Positions 1,369 through 61,809 of a stretch of 64,000 nucleotides of DNA are shown here, piece by piece (the first letter of the stretch is position 1; every line of letters starts with the position of its first letter). The notes beneath the pieces are model-generated. The model was not told where the DNA came from and made no database searches. It saw only the letters and a list, made by a program, of their open reading frames with translations. Position numbers and translations under genes: made by a program. This DNA comes from a virus, in the IMG/VR virus record IMGVR_UViG_3300027881_000007, positions 1 through 64,000 of that record; one strand, 5' to 3'.

Positions 1369-1836
1369 ATGAAAAAACTTTGGTTTTTGGCACTGTTGGG
1401 AATAGCAGTCTTATCTTGCGGACCCACAAATGCACAACTGAGGGCGCAGACAAGTCTTCCCTCTATACCTGAAGAAGCTAAACCTAAGGCAAAGATACAG
1501 TGCAAGATTGTCGTCAAGCGTTATGCAGTTTCGGAAAAATCCCACAAACCTGTTCCGGACACAAAAGTTATCATTGTCAAGGATCAGTCTGATCTCCCTA
1601 GGCCGGCCAGATATCTTGTACTAGGTTCGATGACTGTGGAAGCTGGGAAAGATTGTTTTGTAGTTGAGATCATTGATGCTATAAAGGCTGGAGCGGGAAC
1701 CTATGGAGCAAATTACGTACTACCTTGGACCGCACAAGAGGGAACTGACGAACAAGTTGCTGGTCCTGGATTAGGAGTTGAAGGAGATACTTCAAGCGCT
1801 TATATCTTGCTTAGGTCAAAAGAACTATCTATATGA
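1369..1836 (+). CDS. lipoprotein of unknown function
   Basis: Signal peptide with lipobox (MKKLWFLALLGIAVLS-C); GAGGAG RBS. Confidence 0.75.
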   Translation: MKKLWFLALLGIAVLSCGPTNAQLRAQTSLPSIPEEAKPKAKIQCKIVVKRYAVSEKSHKPVPDTKVIIVKDQSDLPRPARYLVLGSMTVEAGKDCFVVEIIDAIKAGAGTYGANYVLPWTAQEGTDEQVAGPGLGVEGDTSSAYILLRSKELSI

Positions 1837-38534: not shown

Positions 38535-39497
38535 TCACCTTCCTACAAGAGTGTTATAATAGCAACCAACCTTACAAGACGCCAGAACTGCACACTCCTT
38601 ACACTTCTCAGATAACTCCATAATAGAGTTGGTCTTCATACGAGATCCCCTTTGAATCATATTAGTGATCTCATCCATCGTCTTAACATCACCATTATCC
38701 TTCAATATAGAACCAACTTTTATCCTCGTCTGATTGCAGTAATATAGTTCAAAATCATAGTCGATCAAACCCATATGTGTATCACCACAACAAGTTATCT
38801 TCGCAAAGTGAAGACCATCTAAATCGTGAAAACTTATCACATCCAACATATCCTGAGTATAGAAGCACATAGGCAAAACGTGATCATAACTGTGCGATAT
38901 ATTCCTCTTCCATAAGTTAGGTCCTATAGTAGTAACTACGTCAATCCACGATTCTCTATACTGGTTTAAGATATTGTCGTCAAACAAATCAACCTGTGTA
39001 TCCGGAGACAATATAATATGTACATATGGACCCAACTTCACACACTGATTTACCTTCTCAATCATCTCATCTATACCATTTAAGGGTACAACAAAGTGAA
39101 GGGACATACGACGTATAAGATCACCATACTCAGGGAACACATTGGGGTCAAATACAAAACCATTTACTGTAAACTGTAACTTGCCTTGAAAGTGATTCTT
39201 GACGACCACTCCATGTTTCGTGATCTCTTTCATCCTTGTACCATTGGTAAATATATTAACCATTCCATAGTGCTTACAGGACTCTATAACTACATCTATA
39301 AACCTAGGGTGAAGTGTAGGTTCCCCACCCATAATCTTCAACTCTTCTTGTTTTAAATGACCAGAGTTAACCTGCATAAACTTAATCAATACATCGGCAT
39401 CCATAGACCCCGTCATCCTGGCATCTGCATTGAAGCAGTGTGGACACGATGCATTACACAACTCTGTCAGAACTATCCTGTGGGCTAGTTGAATCAT
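38535..39497 (-). CDS. radical SAM protein with SPASM-like C-terminus
   Basis: CNASCPHC (CxxxCxxC), GGEPTLHP, FTNG; C-terminal CKECAVLASCKVGC. Confidence 0.92.
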   Translation of the reverse strand: MIQLAHRIVLTELCNASCPHCFNADARMTGSMDADVLIKFMQVNSGHLKQEELKIMGGEPTLHPRFIDVVIESCKHYGMVNIFTNGTRMKEITKHGVVVKNHFQGKLQFTVNGFVFDPNVFPEYGDLIRRMSLHFVVPLNGIDEMIEKVNQCVKLGPYVHIILSPDTQVDLFDDNILNQYRESWIDVVTTIGPNLWKRNISHSYDHVLPMCFYTQDMLDVISFHDLDGLHFAKITCCGDTHMGLIDYDFELYYCNQTRIKVGSILKDNGDVKTMDEITNMIQRGSRMKTNSIMELSEKCKECAVLASCKVGCYYNTLVGR

Positions 39498-54928: not shown

Positions 54929-55204
54929 TTATGGGCGAGGAATCTGATCTTTATCGTCTGGGGGAGAAGTTTTGGGAGATTTATCTTTAGGATCCTTCTT
55001 TTTAGCAGCAGCAGCCCACTCTTGAATCTTATTTGAACCTACATAAGCACCCCACAAAATTGCAACTAATTCTGGGGTTAAAGAAGGATATGGTTTTTCA
55101 AAATACCAAGCAAATGGAAACATAAATACAACCATACCTGTAAGAATTGTAGCAAAGAATGCAGTCTTTGAGGCCTTGTTATCAACACTCCATAAGAATT
55201 TCAT
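54929..55204 (-). CDS. holin-like two-TM protein
   Basis: Two TM segments and a charged C-tail; GAGGAG RBS before MKFLW; near spanin-like genes. Confidence 0.45.
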   Translation of the reverse strand: MKFLWSVDNKASKTAFFATILTGMVVFMFPFAWYFEKPYPSLTPELVAILWGAYVGSNKIQEWAAAAKKKDPKDKSPKTSPPDDKDQIPRP

Positions 55205-55932
55205 TGTATTCTCCTCACAAAAAGTAATGGCCATCTCTCATCGAAATTAGTAAAGTGTCGGTTCAACTGTTTCACTTCTTTTGTATCTGGAATATCTAAT
55301 CTGTTTGGTTTAACTTTATATCTAACATTCCCTGTGAGGACACATCCTTCAACTAGTCCACAAAACTGAGCAACCCGTTTTCCCCTTCTTTTAGGTTTTT
55401 TACAGTAGTCTTCATATCTCACAACCTTATATAAATCTGAAGGTAGTGTTGTTAATTGTGTATTTAAACGAGATAACTGTTCTTCGTGAATAACAGCTCC
55501 AGCCCTAAGATTTACTGAATGTCTTCTCCGAAAAGTTGATAAGACACACATTATAGGATTTCTAACCATTACAACTATTTTTAAATCATCCTTAAACAAA
55601 TCATATACATCATATAGATCTGGAGCGGAACGAGCACTCCCTCCAAAGGGTGCAGACCGTTTATATAGTACAACATCCTTTCTTGGAAATTTTTGAAGAA
55701 GTTTATCAATCATTGGTTGTATTTGACTCTTAGCATCTTGATGTTGTTTAAAGTCGCCTTGGCGATCCCACATTGTTCTTGTCAACTCATTAAACTCATT
55801 AATCAAGGGATCATTAAGTGGTCGATGATTTCCGCCAAGAGTTAAAACATTGCCCGGAGTGCTTAGTATTCTGAGCATCATTGTCGTACCAGAACCAGAG
55901 CAACCAACAATAAAGATAAACTTATAACTCAC
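55201..55932 (-). CDS. sulfotransferase
   Basis: 5'-PSB loop GCSGSGTTM; 3'-PB MVRNP...S; VRYED. Confidence 0.85.
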   Translation of the reverse strand: MSYKFIFIVGCSGSGTTMMLRILSTPGNVLTLGGNHRPLNDPLINEFNELTRTMWDRQGDFKQHQDAKSQIQPMIDKLLQKFPRKDVVLYKRSAPFGGSARSAPDLYDVYDLFKDDLKIVVMVRNPIMCVLSTFRRRHSVNLRAGAVIHEEQLSRLNTQLTTLPSDLYKVVRYEDYCKKPKRRGKRVAQFCGLVEGCVLTGNVRYKVKPNRLDIPDTKEVKQLNRHFTNFDERWPLLFVRRIQ

Positions 55933-55941
55933 TTCAATCTC

Positions 55942-56532
55942 CTATAATACTAAGACAAGAGCAATCCCAACAGCAATTGCTCCTATAACTCCAAGGGTAA
56001 TTTTATTTTCAATTCTTTGTTTCTCTAATTTATATTCCAACTGTAGAACTCTATTCTCGGCATTTACCCATAGAGTCCTGTAACGCTGAATGGTTATATC
56101 TTGGAGTTTGACAACATCTAACATTGCATTGTAAAGTTCAACTTCAACTTGTACTCTCTGAACCAATAGTTCAGAAATTTCAGCCATCATTTTGCCTTGC
56201 TCAATCTTGGCAACTATTTTGTTGTGCTCTTCAACAAGATATCCAACTACTTCAGCACCCTCTGGCACTTCCCCTTCCCAATCAAACTCTGTAGTCTGAC
56301 CTTTTCTTATTAAGATAATGGGAACAGGTTCATTCATTTTATGAACTTTATGAAGTATCTGCTTTAGTTTATCAACTCTGAGTTTGAAGGGGCGTTGGAA
56401 TCTCTCTTCCATTTCAATGGGTTTAAATTCATCTGGAGGCTTGAAATCTTTTGGACCGCTGGCACAACTAGTCAGCAGACCAATTCCAAGCAGCACGTAG
56501 ACGATCCAGGGACTCCTTAGCCGTTTGAACAT
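55942..56532 (-). CDS. spanin-like lipoprotein with C-terminal TM
   Basis: Lipobox LLTS-C, coiled coil, terminal ITLGVIGAIAVGIALVLVL; overlaps the upstream gene. Confidence 0.55.
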   Translation of the reverse strand: MFKRLRSPWIVYVLLGIGLLTSCASGPKDFKPPDEFKPIEMEERFQRPFKLRVDKLKQILHKVHKMNEPVPIILIRKGQTTEFDWEGEVPEGAEVVGYLVEEHNKIVAKIEQGKMMAEISELLVQRVQVEVELYNAMLDVVKLQDITIQRYRTLWVNAENRVLQLEYKLEKQRIENKITLGVIGAIAVGIALVLVL

Positions 56533-56848
56533 TTTTTATCTCCTTAACGGTTCTATTAAAAGTCCTAATAGACCTACCTAAGTCGATCTTAACCACTTGC
56601 GCCACCTCTTCTCTTTTTGTCATCTTCGTTGCTAGGTTGTCATTTGCAACAGCAAGCTGACTTAGTGCAGTTGTTAGTTGTTGCATTTGAACGAACTGTT
56701 TCATTTCATAGTTGTGGCGGTCCGTTAGCATATCCTTTGTCTCACTACGATAGCTAAGAAATATAATGAGAATAATAATAGCGAGAATGAATATGCCAAA
56801 GTCCTTAATTATTCCTAAGGCCTTGCTGAGTGCATCCATTATACCCAC
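56468..56848 (-). CDS. i-spanin-like protein (N-terminal TM plus coiled coil)
   Basis: FGIFILAIIILIIFL followed by a helical domain; Rz/Rz1-like overlap. Confidence 0.5.
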   Translation of the reverse strand: MGIMDALSKALGIIKDFGIFILAIIILIIFLSYRSETKDMLTDRHNYEMKQFVQMQQLTTALSQLAVANDNLATKMTKREEVAQVVKIDLGRSIRTFNRTVKEIKNVQTAKESLDRLRAAWNWSAD

Positions 56849-57627
56849 TCCTTTATTCTATATCCCAAAAGGTCAAACAGTTTTTCATTTTGTTCTCTGT
56901 AAAAGATATTAAATTCTCTCCTCACCTTTTTCTCCATTGGTTCGAAATTAGCCCCTACCCTTGACCAAACCTTATATACCTTTTCTTGGCTGTCCTTATA
57001 CATATCCCCTGTTTTCTTGCTATACCTTTTAGAAGGATGAATAATTTCAGTGGGAAAGTCAATAGGATCTGCTCCAAGAAATTCGTGTATCTTACTCATC
57101 TCATTAGTGGTATCTTCTTTCATCCTTTCGACAATGTATATATGAACCTGTTCTCTAGGAATATTTATAAAGACATTTTCTGCAAGATGCTTATAATATC
57201 TTCCCAATCTCAGATACATAGTCTTAAATTTTCTACAATTTTCTAAAGTAAATTTCCAGTTCACTTTTTTTGCTTGAACATTCATTCTATAGTGTGAGTA
57301 TGCCCGATCAGTTGGATTTCTAATTCCTATTATCAGTTTTGTGTCAGGAGCATATCTGCCCATAAGTCTCATAGCTTTTCTATGTCCTGCATAATCTGGA
57401 CTTTTTTCACCAGAAATTTTTCCCACAAACTTACTCTTATACCATTTAATTCCTTTATTCCAATTGTGTAAACCCCAAAATCTCATTTCAGTTCCACCGC
57501 CTACACCTGGTCTAACTGGACCTCCCCTTTTAGACATTGTTATATCTGGATGTTTATTCAGGTTTAGAAACAACTGAGTAGTTCCACACTTTAAAAAACC
57601 TGCTATTATAAAATCAGGAAGTTTCAA
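56839..57627 (-). CDS. sulfotransferase (heparan-sulfate-ST-like)
   Basis: KLPDFIIAGFLKCGTT, GEKSPDY and IRNPTDRAYSHY. Confidence 0.92.
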   Translation of the reverse strand: MKLPDFIIAGFLKCGTTQLFLNLNKHPDITMSKRGGPVRPGVGGGTEMRFWGLHNWNKGIKWYKSKFVGKISGEKSPDYAGHRKAMRLMGRYAPDTKLIIGIRNPTDRAYSHYRMNVQAKKVNWKFTLENCRKFKTMYLRLGRYYKHLAENVFINIPREQVHIYIVERMKEDTTNEMSKIHEFLGADPIDFPTEIIHPSKRYSKKTGDMYKDSQEKVYKVWSRVGANFEPMEKKVRREFNIFYREQNEKLFDLLGYRIKEWV

Positions 57628-58321
57628 TACAATCTCCTATCTCGTAAACTGGTCCATCGAATTTATTAAATACCTTTATAACATCATTAAATCTTGGGTC
57701 AACCCTTTTCAACATAAAACCATTCTTCTTATGGTTGAGTATTCTCCCAACTCTCATAGGTTCTCTGTAATCGAATGGATCTAGATTACAATGTTCATAA
57801 ATTCTCGCTGATATTTCTTTAAAGTTTGAGACCATATTTTCATACTTTATTGTTAAACAACTTTTTAAGTCTGCAATCATTTCAGTGTACTTTGGTATAT
57901 AAGTAATATACTCATCAATCATTCTGGGAATCTGTTTCATCTTTCCCCTTTTACGATATTTCATTTTTATAATCGAATTCCATGAGTCAAGGGGATGTCT
58001 CACTATTTGAATTATTCTTGCATCACTACCAAAGAGTTCATTCCATTTTTCACAATATTCAACAACTGTAATATTTGATAAATGGCGTTTACCAATTACT
58101 CTCTTTTCGTAGATTAGTTTATCTCCATGATTTAACTTAAACTTAGGGTATTTGTTGTAAAGATAATTCTTAGTTGTAAATTGAAATCTAGATGAATATC
58201 TACTTCGTATTATATGCTCTTCATTAAACATACCTGCCATTTGTGGATGTTTCTTACAAGTCCTATATGTAAGTGTAGTCCCACTTCTTGGAAATCCGAC
58301 AACCAAAACCTTTACTCCCAA
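57614..58321 (-). CDS. sulfotransferase
   Basis: GFPRSGTT, IVRHPLD..S and IKYEN. Confidence 0.9.
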   Translation of the reverse strand: MGVKVLVVGFPRSGTTLTYRTCKKHPQMAGMFNEEHIIRSRYSSRFQFTTKNYLYNKYPKFKLNHGDKLIYEKRVIGKRHLSNITVVEYCEKWNELFGSDARIIQIVRHPLDSWNSIIKMKYRKRGKMKQIPRMIDEYITYIPKYTEMIADLKSCLTIKYENMVSNFKEISARIYEHCNLDPFDYREPMRVGRILNHKKNGFMLKRVDPRFNDVIKVFNKFDGPVYEIGDCIETS

Positions 58322-58322
58322 A

Positions 58323-58994
58323 TCATCTCCCCCTTAAACGCTTATGAAACTTGTTAACTTCTCTATAGAGTTCTTTTGTTCTTTCAATAACTACTTCTTC
58401 TACTTCTTTACTTATTGGTTTATTAGTTGAGGCTTTTCTGTGATCTACAACATTTATTAACTTTCTAAATGGTCCAACGTCCTGGAGTTTTATATCGTTT
58501 GTCCATTGTTCAAATCTTACAATAGGATTCCCTGACTCCAAAAAATCAAAAACAACATTGTTCCATCTTGTTGTGTACCAGATAGCTAGTTTCTCTGTGT
58601 CTACGCCTCCAAAGCGTTCAGCCTGTTCGGGGTGTCTTCGACTATACATTGAGCAATAAGCGTACACAGGATTTCGTACAATACACATTGCCTTAATAGA
58701 ATTTATTGTTAGAAATGGAGTAAACTTAGAGACCCCACCACTGAATAGAATGGGTTTTTTAGAATTGTGAACGAACCTTACTAAATTATCGTTAAGATTG
58801 ATAGTCATATCAAGGTCAGTCCCAGTACGTTGTTTCCATCTTTTCTGCATAGTTGCTTTTGGCATATAACATATATCACCTGCGGAACCGATAACTGTAT
58901 CTGGTCGCATATGAGCATTCATCAAACGTCTAACAAGAGATGTGGCATGACCACCCCATGGTGCAATTGCTACTTTAATATTCTGGTTCTTCAT
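58323..58994 (-). CDS. divergent sulfotransferase-like protein
   Basis: PWGGHATS loop, IVRNPV...S and VRFE. Confidence 0.55.
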   Translation of the reverse strand: MKNQNIKVAIAPWGGHATSLVRRLMNAHMRPDTVIGSAGDICYMPKATMQKRWKQRTGTDLDMTINLNDNLVRFVHNSKKPILFSGGVSKFTPFLTINSIKAMCIVRNPVYAYCSMYSRRHPEQAERFGGVDTEKLAIWYTTRWNNVVFDFLESGNPIVRFEQWTNDIKLQDVGPFRKLINVVDHRKASTNKPISKEVEEVVIERTKELYREVNKFHKRLRGR

Positions 58995-59310
58995 ATTCTG
59001 TACCTTCCCATAACTCTCCAAATGGGAGACAAATTTCAAGACATTCCAAAAGTAGTGATTGTGCCTTCTTCCTCCATTCTCTCTTCGGACTAATACAAGC
59101 GACTACAACTGTAAACCCTTGTTCTTCTAATAATGCAGCAAACTTTGCTATGAGCATTATATTGCTTTCTCGTCCCTCATCTGTAAAATCAGAGGGAAAA
59201 TGTTCTCTTATCCTGTCCCCATCTAAAACAATACCATTAGTTTGTCTAGCAATACGATTTGCTAAAGTTGTCTTACCCGCCCCAGATCGACCTGTAATCC
59301 AATATACCAT
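58975..59310 (-). CDS. cysC: adenylylsulfate (APS) kinase, compact form
   Basis: WITGRSGAGKTTLA, LDGDRIR, FTDEGRESNI, ISP and YEEP. Confidence 0.88.
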   Translation of the reverse strand: MVYWITGRSGAGKTTLANRIARQTNGIVLDGDRIREHFPSDFTDEGRESNIMLIAKFAALLEEQGFTVVVACISPKREWRKKAQSLLLECLEICLPFGELWEGTEYEEPEY

Positions 59311-59322
59311 TTATGTAATCCT

Positions 59323-59838
59323 CTATCTGTTTATATAATCAGTTATCACAGCAGCTCCATGAATAATCTCAACACTCTTCTCAACTATTTCAGCACCCTC
59401 TTCATGAGTTGGAGGTTCAAGTTCTAAGCTCGCTTGCATCCTTTCCATAACAACTAAAGGAAAATCAGATTCGATTGCTCTTTCAATACAAGTTTCATAT
59501 GGAGTTTTTACATAAATAATTGTTACATCTGCTCCATATTCTTTACCTAAGTTGATTACTTTCTCTCTTCTAAATTTTGTTGTGTGTGTTCCATCGAGAA
59601 CTACATCTAGTCCTCTGATCAGACTGGCCCTAACCATTGTATTAAATGTGCCCCAAACAAAGTCTTCTAGTTTTGGATCAAATTCAACTCCAAGTGCAAG
59701 TCTAATATCATCACCACAAATGACTTGGTATTCCCGGAGTTCCCGATTCACTATTGTCGACTTCCCGCTCTTTGGGAGGCCGCACATTATCACCATCGTC
59801 GGTCTTCTCTCTACTCCTTGATCTTTCGGCATTCTCAA
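59323..59838 (-). CDS. AAA_33/polynucleotide kinase-like P-loop kinase
   Basis: CGLPKSGKST, DDIR, VLDGT and CIER. Confidence 0.85.
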   Translation of the reverse strand: MRMPKDQGVERRPTMVIMCGLPKSGKSTIVNRELREYQVICGDDIRLALGVEFDPKLEDFVWGTFNTMVRASLIRGLDVVLDGTHTTKFRREKVINLGKEYGADVTIIYVKTPYETCIERAIESDFPLVVMERMQASLELEPPTHEEGAEIVEKSVEIIHGAAVITDYINR

Positions 59839-60416: not shown

Positions 60417-60616
60417 TCTTCAAACAACTTCCAAAAGTGCTCATTGACAACTTTTTGAATTTCAGGATCAGGATCTTTTTGCTCCTTAAATAAATTATAT
60501 ACAAACTTTCGATGAATTTTTGCTTCTTCTTCTGTGAGATTTCTATGTCCGGGAAAGAGTTTTTCACAAAACTCAATCCAATTTTTATCGCCCGACATCT
60601 TGTACCTCACCTTCAA
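60413..60616 (-). CDS. small hypothetical protein
   Basis: Tiled ORF. Confidence 0.5.
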   Translation of the reverse strand: MKVRYKMSGDKNWIEFCEKLFPGHRNLTEEEAKIHRKFVYNLFKEQKDPDPEIQKVVNEHFWKLFED

Positions 60617-61019
60617 TAGAAGGACCTTCTACAGAAAGAAGTTCTTCATCTGGTATTCCTAAACCAACTGGACTTAACTGCTCCAATTCATATACAACCA
60701 TAGATTTTAGAATACTATTCCAAGTTTTCCTATTGAAGGGTCCATCAGGCAAGTCATTGCCCCTAGTCCAGTCTTCTGCAGCCCTTGGTTTTCTTCGTGA
60801 AACTACACAACCAAGATATCCTTTATTGGGTCTTTCAATTGCTACTATAGCATATACATTCTCAAAAGTATATAGTTTAAATTTAAAGCGATGTTCATAT
60901 TCACCATTGCCGTGACCTTCTCCTTCGTCCTCTGTAATATGGACATAGTTTTCAACGTTTCCACGAGTTCCCAAGTCTTCTTCTATCCACTTTTTTAGAT
61001 CTTTAATTGTATTACTCAT
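60585..61019 (-). CDS. hypothetical protein
   Basis: YLGCVVSRRKPRAAEDWTRGNDLPDG; AAGGAG RBS before MSNTI. Confidence 0.75.
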   Translation of the reverse strand: MSNTIKDLKKWIEEDLGTRGNVENYVHITEDEGEGHGNGEYEHRFKFKLYTFENVYAIVAIERPNKGYLGCVVSRRKPRAAEDWTRGNDLPDGPFNRKTWNSILKSMVVYELEQLSPVGLGIPDEELLSVEGPSIEGEVQDVGR

Positions 61020-61042
61020 AGTTCGCTCCTTTCTTGACAACG

Positions 61043-61095
61043 AAAAAAAATGAGGGGGTTGCGACCCTTTTGAAAAAAAGGCGTGGACCCCCTCA
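61043..61095 (-). terminator. terminator hairpin ending the RNA cluster
   Basis: TGAGGGGGT/ACCCCCTCA 9-bp stem followed by T8 on the minus strand. Confidence 0.7.
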
Positions 61096-61201
61096 AAACC
61101 ACATCTATCCCAAAGGAGAAGAGTTTAGCAGCCTTTTCCTGTGTGGACCAAACTCTATTAATGCAGGGTCGCAGACAGAATGACATGAACTAAACCACAC
61201 A
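61051..61201 (-). ncRNA. unknown structured ncRNA, copy A
   Basis: Shares motifs and covarying stems with copy B; strand inferred from the tRNA and terminator. Confidence 0.55.
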
Positions 61202-61249
61202 AACCCCGGCAGATAGAGGCAAAGGCAGCAGGCGCAGCAAGGCACCATC

Positions 61250-61390
61250 GAGGAGATGCGGACCTTGTTGAAAAGGGGTGGTCTCCCCAAACCACAACTT
61301 CCCTAGGAGTCGGCTAGCACAGTCAGGATTTTCTGGTGCAAACTGTGTTAGGGCCGCAGGTTCGCAGACGGCATGGGCTGGACTCGCACC
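61250..61390 (-). ncRNA. unknown structured ncRNA, copy B
   Basis: Shares GTCTGCGAMCCTGC, CTCCT..GGGA, TGTGGTTT and a terminal hairpin with copy A. Confidence 0.55.
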
Positions 61391-61444
61391 AACCACTATG
61401 CTGAATCGGAGGGATTTTTTGATGCATAGTGGAGAAAAAACTTT

Positions 61445-61512
61445 TGGAGCGGGGGAGAGGAGTCGAACCCCTTCTGGACTTGGAAGGTCCTTACCGGCCA
61501 CCCGGCCTCCGC
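61445..61512 (-). tRNA. tRNA-Gly(TCC)-like, 68 nt, with shortened D-arm
   Basis: GCGGAGG/CCCCCGC acceptor stem, T discriminator, encoded CCA, GGAC-CTTCCAA-GTCC anticodon arm, AGGGG-TTCGACT-CCTCT T-arm. Confidence 0.8.
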
Positions 61513-61518
61513 ATGTCT

Positions 61519-61809
61519 TCATTTCGGAACCTCCAGAGGAGTGTTGTGATTCATTTTTCTTCGAAGCATTTCTTTAACCAATTCATTATGTACATTTATA
61601 ATAAACTCAAACGCTTCTCTAGTCACATTACCTTTTTTATTCCATGCGCCGTGTAGCATATGACATTTTCTATGAAGATCAACTAACTGCGGATTGGTTA
61701 ACTCTCGTACTACCTTCCCGCTCCTGTCCCTCTCAATCTCTTTAAGACGATTATATGTGGAGGGTAATTTTTGTATTATTTTCAAATACCTTTCGATCAG
61801 AGGATTCAT
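61519..61809 (-). CDS. hypothetical protein
   Basis: AGGA RBS; leader-like LIERYLKIIQ; His-rich. Confidence 0.65.
   Translation of the reverse strand: MNPLIERYLKIIQKLPSTYNRLKEIERDRSGKVVRELTNPQLVDLHRKCHMLHGAWNKKGNVTREAFEFIINVHNELVKEMLRRKMNHNTPLEVPK

Follow-up and report, generated by a model that had tools for sequence, protein, structure and literature searches.

Between positions 61100 and 61500 of the 64,000-nucleotide (nt) window analysed here, which covers positions 1 to 64,000 of the IMG/VR virus record IMGVR_UViG_3300027881_000007, the G+C content rises to 51-57%, compared with ~37% in the flanks. What does this island encode? The first-pass annotation, made from the sequence alone, had singled out the island and proposed that a pseudoknotted non-coding RNA is present there in two diverged copies, arranged in tandem and located downstream of a transfer RNA (tRNA) gene. 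The whole record is 113 kb long and rated 36% complete by CheckV; it is therefore a fragment of a phage of roughly 300 kb. Our analysis bears out the proposal of two tandem copies with a covarying fold, named here unit A (61052-61207) and unit B (61250-61394) and delimited by covariance-model matches and helix tables. On present evidence, the units appear to form a previously undescribed family of compact and intricately knotted structured RNAs, members of which also occur singly, and without a tRNA, in unrelated phages.

The repeats and motifs on which the proposal was built are all present where it placed them, read on the minus strand. Units A and B share direct repeats 193 nt apart (61163-61191/61356-61384, 61096-61106/61289-61299 and 61052-61076/61250-61274). 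A covariance model that drew on copy A alone, taken from six lineages (R1; the combined model, with both copies, is R2), matched copy B over its full length with an E-value of ~1e-13 and nothing else in the window, and the copies are therefore homologous rather than similar by chance. The strand had been left uncertain. Recurrent G-U pairs in several helices, a terminator, the tRNA-like RNA and the direction of the flanking genes together place the RNA on the minus strand, the direction of all genes around 61 kb, and all features of the window described below lie on that strand.

As judged from its covarying base pairs, each unit folds into two interlocked pseudoknot domains. The units measure ~150 nt for A and B and 113-160 nt across the family. 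In the 5' domain, a 7-bp helix, PK1, ties the 5' end of the unit to the loop of a 10-bp hairpin, P3, and encloses P2, a small hairpin with a conserved 12-nt core loop. In the 3' domain, eight bases of this core loop form PK2 with eight bases in the loop of the terminal hairpin Pt, at its 3' side and immediately ahead of the last Pt strand, while P4 (4 bp, GUGG/CCAC) brackets the 5' strand of Pt. For unit B, the helices are PK1 (61384-61390 with 61335-61341), P2 (61369-61372 with 61353-61356, closing the core loop), PK2 (61359-61366 with 61257-61264), P3 (61342-61347 with 61318-61323, extended by 61349-61351 with 61314-61316), P4 (61292-61295 with 61278-61281) and Pt (61282-61288 with 61250-61256). 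For unit A, they are PK1 (61195-61201 with 61140-61146), PK2 (61166-61173 with 61060-61067, within the core loop at 61164-61175), P3 (61147-61156 with 61120-61129), P4 (61099-61102 with 61083-61086) and Pt (61087-61094 with 61052-61059). No linker separates PK1 from P3 or PK2 from Pt, and the helices of each pair can therefore stack. The conserved unpaired nucleotides comprise a GGAUAGAU-type junction and an A-rich strand, both located between helices, and the flanks of the core loop.

P3 and PK1 were already part of the first-pass annotation. Its two stems (AGAGUUU/AAACUCU and CACAGU/ACUGUG) hold, as do the pairings of their loops with the 5' end (UGUGUGG/CCACACA and GGUGCGA/UUGCACC), and PK1 covaries both between the copies and among homologues. 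P2, PK2 and P4 are additions of the present analysis, and they change how the 3' half of the unit is read. What had been described as a CCAC/CGCA internal loop in a long terminal hairpin is no internal loop: CCAC pairs with the conserved GUGG in P4, and CGCA is the end of the 8-bp PK2 helix to the 12-nt loop. The inner stem of that long hairpin is broken by changes in unit D, a further family member, and in unit B of the distant relative L072, changes that keep PK2; it is an alternative state at best. Folding of single sequences gave z-scores of -0.1 and -1.7, which is uninformative, as expected because the fold is pseudoknotted.

Relatives of the locus supply the variation on which the fold can be judged. 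By way of the neighbouring proteins we reached a 277-kb phage that is complete and has terminal repeats, and two fragments of the same phage; in all of them the block lies between the same pair of genes. Scanning metagenome contigs for motifs then added at least five further block lineages (L207, L183, L211, L154 and L161). Single units occur as well. The R2 model located unit C in the 277-kb relative, at 39002-39158 (L271:1501-1657, minus strand), ~205 kb from the tRNA-like/B/A block and solitary, with no tRNA nearby. R2 found no third unit in the 113-kb record of the window, and the equivalent of the unit C locus probably lies outside the fragment. The same model recovered diverged single units in two further contigs, D (L153) and E (L208). 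A scan for the junction motif yielded two shorter members, F and G, in two unrelated G+C-rich phage groups. The proposed search of phage sequences with a covariance model has produced homologues, and covariation is present among them.

An alignment of 15 units, representing five types, was fitted to P2, P3 and Pt only. In it, 96.1% of the cells pair and 25 of the 39 pairs change on both sides; none of 500 shuffles reached the observed values, and the paired fraction fell to 37-48% in controls with slid partners. As PK1, PK2 and P4 are absent from the model behind the alignment, their support is an independent test. Six of the seven PK1 positions change on both sides among unit types, position 6 of PK2 occurs as C-G, A-U, U-A and G-C, and P4 of unit C reads AUGG/CCAU. 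Among the fitted helices, P2 occurs as GCCG/CGGC, GCCA/UGGU, GGUG/CACC and CGUG/CACG, and Pt changes at 3-5 positions, depending on the count. Compensatory changes are also found within unit A, where a G-C pair of PK1 becomes A-U in L154, L161 and L211 and a U-A pair of P3 becomes C-G. In units F and G, PK2 (8 of 8 pairs), P4 (4 of 4) and Pt (7 of 7) are kept with quite different letters; in place of PK1, a plain helix encloses the core loop. Phages as different in G+C content as 37% and 65% have the junction motif and the helix lengths in common.

Conservation along the block points in the same direction. Relative to L072, which carries the most distant block, identity is 97% for the tRNA-like RNA, 92.5% for unit B and 83% for unit A, compared with 64% for the spacer between the units and 62-78% for the flanking open reading frames (ORFs), which points to discrete RNA elements under purifying selection. 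The spacer (61208-61249) is C/U-rich and variable, with 64-76% identity in distant relatives, and carries deletions of 8 and 9 nt there.

Unit B is preceded by a 9-bp hairpin, P1 (61393-61432; stem 61424-61432 with 61393-61401), with a 22-nt loop. The first-pass annotation had treated this stem as extra. The stem is present, but it is the first hairpin of unit B rather than an addition to it. It shows no variation across five lineages. A comparable hairpin (CCACC..GGUGG) lies upstream of unit C, and a putative and weak 4-bp counterpart for unit A, located in the spacer (61216-61219 with 61204-61207), never varies. The loop of P1 (61402-61423) contains a CU-rich UCCCUCCG motif that recurs before unit D (L153, approximately 1785-1795, plus strand). 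This motif resembles an anti-Shine-Dalgarno sequence, and its putative pairing partner could be either the unit's own GGGA/GAGGA junction or a ribosome-binding site.

The units match no known RNA family against which they were compared. In line with the first-pass annotation, the 4227 models of Rfam 15 gave no match for the region when the 64-kb window was scanned at the gathering threshold. A permissive scan of 60800-61800 returned only four chance-level matches (E 4-10), and the loci of units C, D and E and the L207 block were without a match at E up to 1. The large phage RNAs GOLLD and ROOL (no match to RF01998 or RF03087) were set aside, with a length of ~580-800 nt against 113-160 nt here. 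T-box leaders were likewise dismissed; there is no match to RF00230, and the downstream genes are unrelated genes that are either unknown or structural. An RNA of the ToxI kind, as in type III toxin-antitoxin systems, would consist of repeats of ~34-50 nt, compared with a period of ~193 nt here, and the candidate protein partner, the 151-amino-acid (aa) gene downstream, is missing in L207 while the RNA is kept. A literature search by sequence and by topic returned nothing relevant; overlap with a catalogue of 10,006 candidate virus RNAs (PMC10690425) was left unchecked.

On the minus strand, the locus reads as a 96-aa gene, the tRNA-like RNA, the 9-bp hairpin, unit B, the spacer, unit A, a U8 tract and a 151-aa ORF. 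The 96-aa gene (61809-61519) has a weak Pyr_excise match, and the tRNA-like RNA (61445-61511) begins ~8 nt past its stop codon. What had been called a tRNA is tRNA-like and non-canonical: ARAGORN reports it at a relaxed threshold (-ps80) only and finds no match at default settings, and the Rfam tRNA model does not match it. The molecule resembles tRNA-Gly(UCC). Its D-arm is minimal, with a stem of 4 bp and a loop of 4 nt, its anticodon stem has 4 bp, its T-arm is canonical and its UCCA end is encoded. Its acceptor stem is closed in cis (G1-C72, C2-G71, G3-C70) and, with U73, is of the glycine type. One A-U pair of the anticodon stem becomes U-A in L183. A diverged version in L153 (1703-1774, plus strand), which escapes default ARAGORN and the Rfam tRNA model in the same manner, has the D-arm CCAA-AGGG-UUGG where the window has CCGG-GUGG-CCGG, a difference of two compensatory pairs. 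The L153 version further possesses an 8-bp anticodon stem and a perfect acceptor stem, and keeps the glycine identity pairs, U73 and the encoded CCA. A pattern scan of IMG/VR for the D-arm of the tRNA-like RNA found the same lineage only.

At the other end of the array, the 8-bp G+C-rich Pt stem of unit A is directly followed by the U8 tract (61050-61043). Together they have the form of an intrinsic terminator, predicted to end the tRNA-like/B/A transcript. The stem and its U-run are kept in L207, L183, L154, L161 and L072; a simple terminator scan missed the structure because its loop limit was 8 nt. No U-tract follows Pt of unit B. The 151-aa ORF (60585-61040) has its listed start at a TTG (61040), and a ribosome-binding site followed by an ATG (61019-61017) lies inside it; this site and start codon come after the U8 tract of unit A.

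Could the island instead be coding? A 110-aa ORF (61190-61522) spans the tRNA-like RNA, unit B and the spacer and is open in the window and in L207, which favours either a protein-coding region or a molecule resembling transfer-messenger RNA (tmRNA) with a tag peptide encoded in the spacer. However, a frameshift or a stop interrupts it in L183, L211 and L072, where the RNA helices are nevertheless preserved. As it is broken in three of four relatives, the ORF is spurious, though a gene caller would probably report it. An open frame crosses the spacer in every lineage and stops at UAG or UGA in the 5' part of unit A. The spacer indels of L211 (-9) and L072 (-8, +1, +1) sum to multiples of three, with shifts of frame in the middle of the L072 peptide. 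Although an open frame in every lineage speaks for a tag, the peptide that it encodes changes frame in L072, and this frame is probably a by-product of RNA constraints. A tmRNA, one-piece or permuted, was found neither by ARAGORN, even when relaxed, nor by the Rfam models; the tRNA-like RNA has its own closed acceptor stem and glycine rather than alanine identity, and its CCA would be internal to the transcript. We regard a coding or tag-encoding role as very improbable. For annotation, the spurious ORF can be removed and the G+C island is explained.

If the island encodes RNAs, do they serve the genes beside them? The first candidate is the 151-aa gene. In L207, a lineage 97% identical to that of the window, this gene is deleted while the RNA block is intact, and the terminator leads directly to the next gene (L207:2450-2466). 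As the gene is absent there and its protein is only 54% identical in the 277-kb relative, it is fast-evolving and dispensable. Twelve other phage contigs carry homologues of this gene without such an RNA upstream of them. A role of the units as its leader or antitoxin was accordingly rejected, on the loss of the gene with the RNA kept and on the homologues without RNA. Across the family, the setting of the units is varied. Each genome holds one to three copies, all of which lie in intergenic gaps and in the sense direction. Unit D lies behind a homologue of the 96-aa gene and the second version of the miniature tRNA-like RNA, and unit E is the last element of a transcription unit, with a convergent gene opposite it and no gene downstream. 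Unit F, 113 nt long and without P3, has a tail-protein gene on one side and, on the other, a small ORF followed by a tail-fibre gene. Unit G comes directly after the gene for the large terminase and is followed by a 104-aa ORF and a P22-like portal gene. The surroundings of units C, F and G differ widely, from uncharacterised genes to tail genes to a terminase gene and a small ORF, with no constant gene neighbour.

These observations bear on the proposal that the units are cis-acting control elements (riboswitches, attenuators, structured terminators or processive antiterminators) that would set read-through into, or translation of, the next gene. Units A, C, F and G do end 20-50 nt upstream of a start codon, and a U-run follows Pt in A and G. 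The short inner stem described above can compete with PK2, which would allow a switch, and tandem riboswitches are known. However, the genes that follow the units are mostly unknown and bear no relation to one another, the 151-aa gene was lost while the RNA stayed, and unit E has no gene to control. Further, only two to three of the seven unit types carry a U-run after Pt, with none in B, D, E and F, and Pt is part of the conserved fold rather than a separate expression platform. A generic riboswitch was rejected on the differing or absent downstream genes and the scarcity of U-runs, and the want of a constant neighbouring gene makes a riboswitch or leader role unlikely. We consider cis control as a whole unlikely as well.

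A self-cleaving ribozyme is another candidate. A new class of ribozyme or self-processing element, cutting the polycistronic transcript at a fixed site, would free the tRNA-like RNA and separate the cistrons. The size of the units, their three pseudoknots and the few strongly conserved unpaired nucleotides are all consistent with such a role, as are the several copies per genome, the tandem arrangement, the sense orientation in phage operons and the independence from any one gene. The twister, pistol, hatchet and HDV-like ribozymes share these traits: they are of similar size, contain pseudoknots and few conserved unpaired bases, occur in multiple or tandem copies and are not associated with particular genes. 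Against this, no known ribozyme family matches at E up to 10 in this region or up to 1 at the other loci, Rfam places no known ribozyme nearby in the window, and a cleavage site cannot be named. The topology also differs from that of HDV-like ribozymes, which are defined by a nested double pseudoknot with the strand order P1, P2, P3, P3', P1', P4, P2'. In these the 3' strand of P1 follows P3, whereas in the units the 3' strand of PK1 lies inside the P3 loop and the second pseudoknot ends in the terminal hairpin; there is no Rfam HDV match, and membership of that class was rejected. A self-cleaving or self-processing ribozyme nonetheless appears to fit the observations nearly as well as the stable RNAs considered below and is their main rival, though as a claim in its own right we hold it to be doubtful.

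A more passive role would be that of a stability or insulator structure, which would protect a message from exonucleases, either the upstream one at its 3' end or the downstream one at its 5' end. The units are intergenic, in sense and at cistron borders, and their very compact pseudoknotted fold recalls that of exonuclease-resistant RNAs. However, protective hairpins need no conserved sequence, yet the junction and helix lengths are kept across phages of 37% and 65% G+C. This explanation seems improbable to us.

We tentatively favour the reading that the units are autonomous stable RNAs, which would be excised from longer transcripts and act through their conserved core on a conserved cellular partner. 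It is favoured because the units are distributed as tRNA genes are and because, in giant phages, they form an array behind a tRNA-like gene. The precursor carrying the tRNA-like RNA and units B and A would be processed by the RNases that mature tRNAs, so that the units would be cut out as phage tRNAs are. The partner would be a protein or RNA of the host gene-expression machinery rather than the adjacent gene. The dispensability of the 151-aa gene, the lack of a gene downstream of unit E and the varied neighbours all argue for autonomy.

Some observations weigh against this reading. The position of units A, C, F and G ahead of start codons, and the U-runs of A and G, would suit a cis-acting control or processing element too. 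One concern is family size: at least about ten distinct lineages were counted, from collection scans that required exact motifs, and the arguments from distribution and from the absence of a constant neighbour rest on few cases. The searches beyond these lineages were negative. The block and units F and G had no BLAST match among 50,697 records of cultured phages, and a first motif scan of IMG/VR gave chance matches only. In phage P1, neither R2 nor the junction pattern gave a match. In 185,579 genomes of prokaryotic species, one exact-motif pattern scan found nothing and the other gave 57 chance matches, none confirmed by the model, so that no bacterial or prophage copy was found by these two scans.

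The stable-RNA and ribozyme readings may also be combined with the tRNA-like neighbour. The units would then be a new class of catalytic or machinery-binding RNA that works with the co-transcribed tRNA-Gly(UCC)-like RNA, either as a self-cleaving or tRNA-processing element or as a tRNA- or ribosome-binding module with which phages of several lineages reprogram host gene expression, and small phages would reuse the core as a stand-alone element. We hold this version to be quite doubtful.

Known phage RNAs offer partial parallels. In the T4 tRNA cluster, species 1 and 2 (rnaC and rnaD) are small stable RNAs that lie directly behind phage tRNA genes, are matured from the same precursor and have no known function. 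Neither a pseudoknot nor an occurrence in unrelated phages is known for these RNAs. The put RNAs of HK022 also resemble the units in that they are folded, lie in sense inside phage operons and act without a dedicated neighbouring gene. However, the put RNAs consist of a pair of simple stem-loops that closely follow early promoters, whereas the units are pseudoknotted and located in late or structural and in accessory regions, one of them ended by a terminator. GOLLD and ROOL are structured ncRNAs of phages and prophages with several pseudoknots, often beside tRNA genes and possibly co-transcribed with them, with no constant protein partner and of unknown function (PMC5737381). The units share with them the phage location, the pseudoknots, the tRNA or tRNA-like neighbour and the lack of a constant gene partner, but differ in being small modules, tandem or scattered, of 113-160 nt rather than ~580-800 nt.

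Pseudoknot-rich RNAs with a conserved core and no gene partner have often proved to be ribozymes or other sophisticated RNAs, and new classes are rare and sought after. The present family packs three crossing helices into 113-160 nt and is itself retained between phages of 37% and 65% G+C. As a small and defined construct with ready covariation data, the unit is suited to structural and biochemical work. Giant sediment phages of one clade show a link between the family and a tRNA-like RNA whose D-arm is miniaturised and which standard tRNA finders miss. The family also adds to the unexplained link between phage tRNA genes and ornate RNAs.

The wider surroundings of the locus contain a varied set of genes. 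Downstream (55201-59838, minus strand) lie three sulfotransferase-domain genes, an APS-kinase-like gene and a polynucleotide-kinase-like AAA_33 gene; upstream of the RNA locus, beyond 64 kb, are tail-collar and tail-repeat genes.
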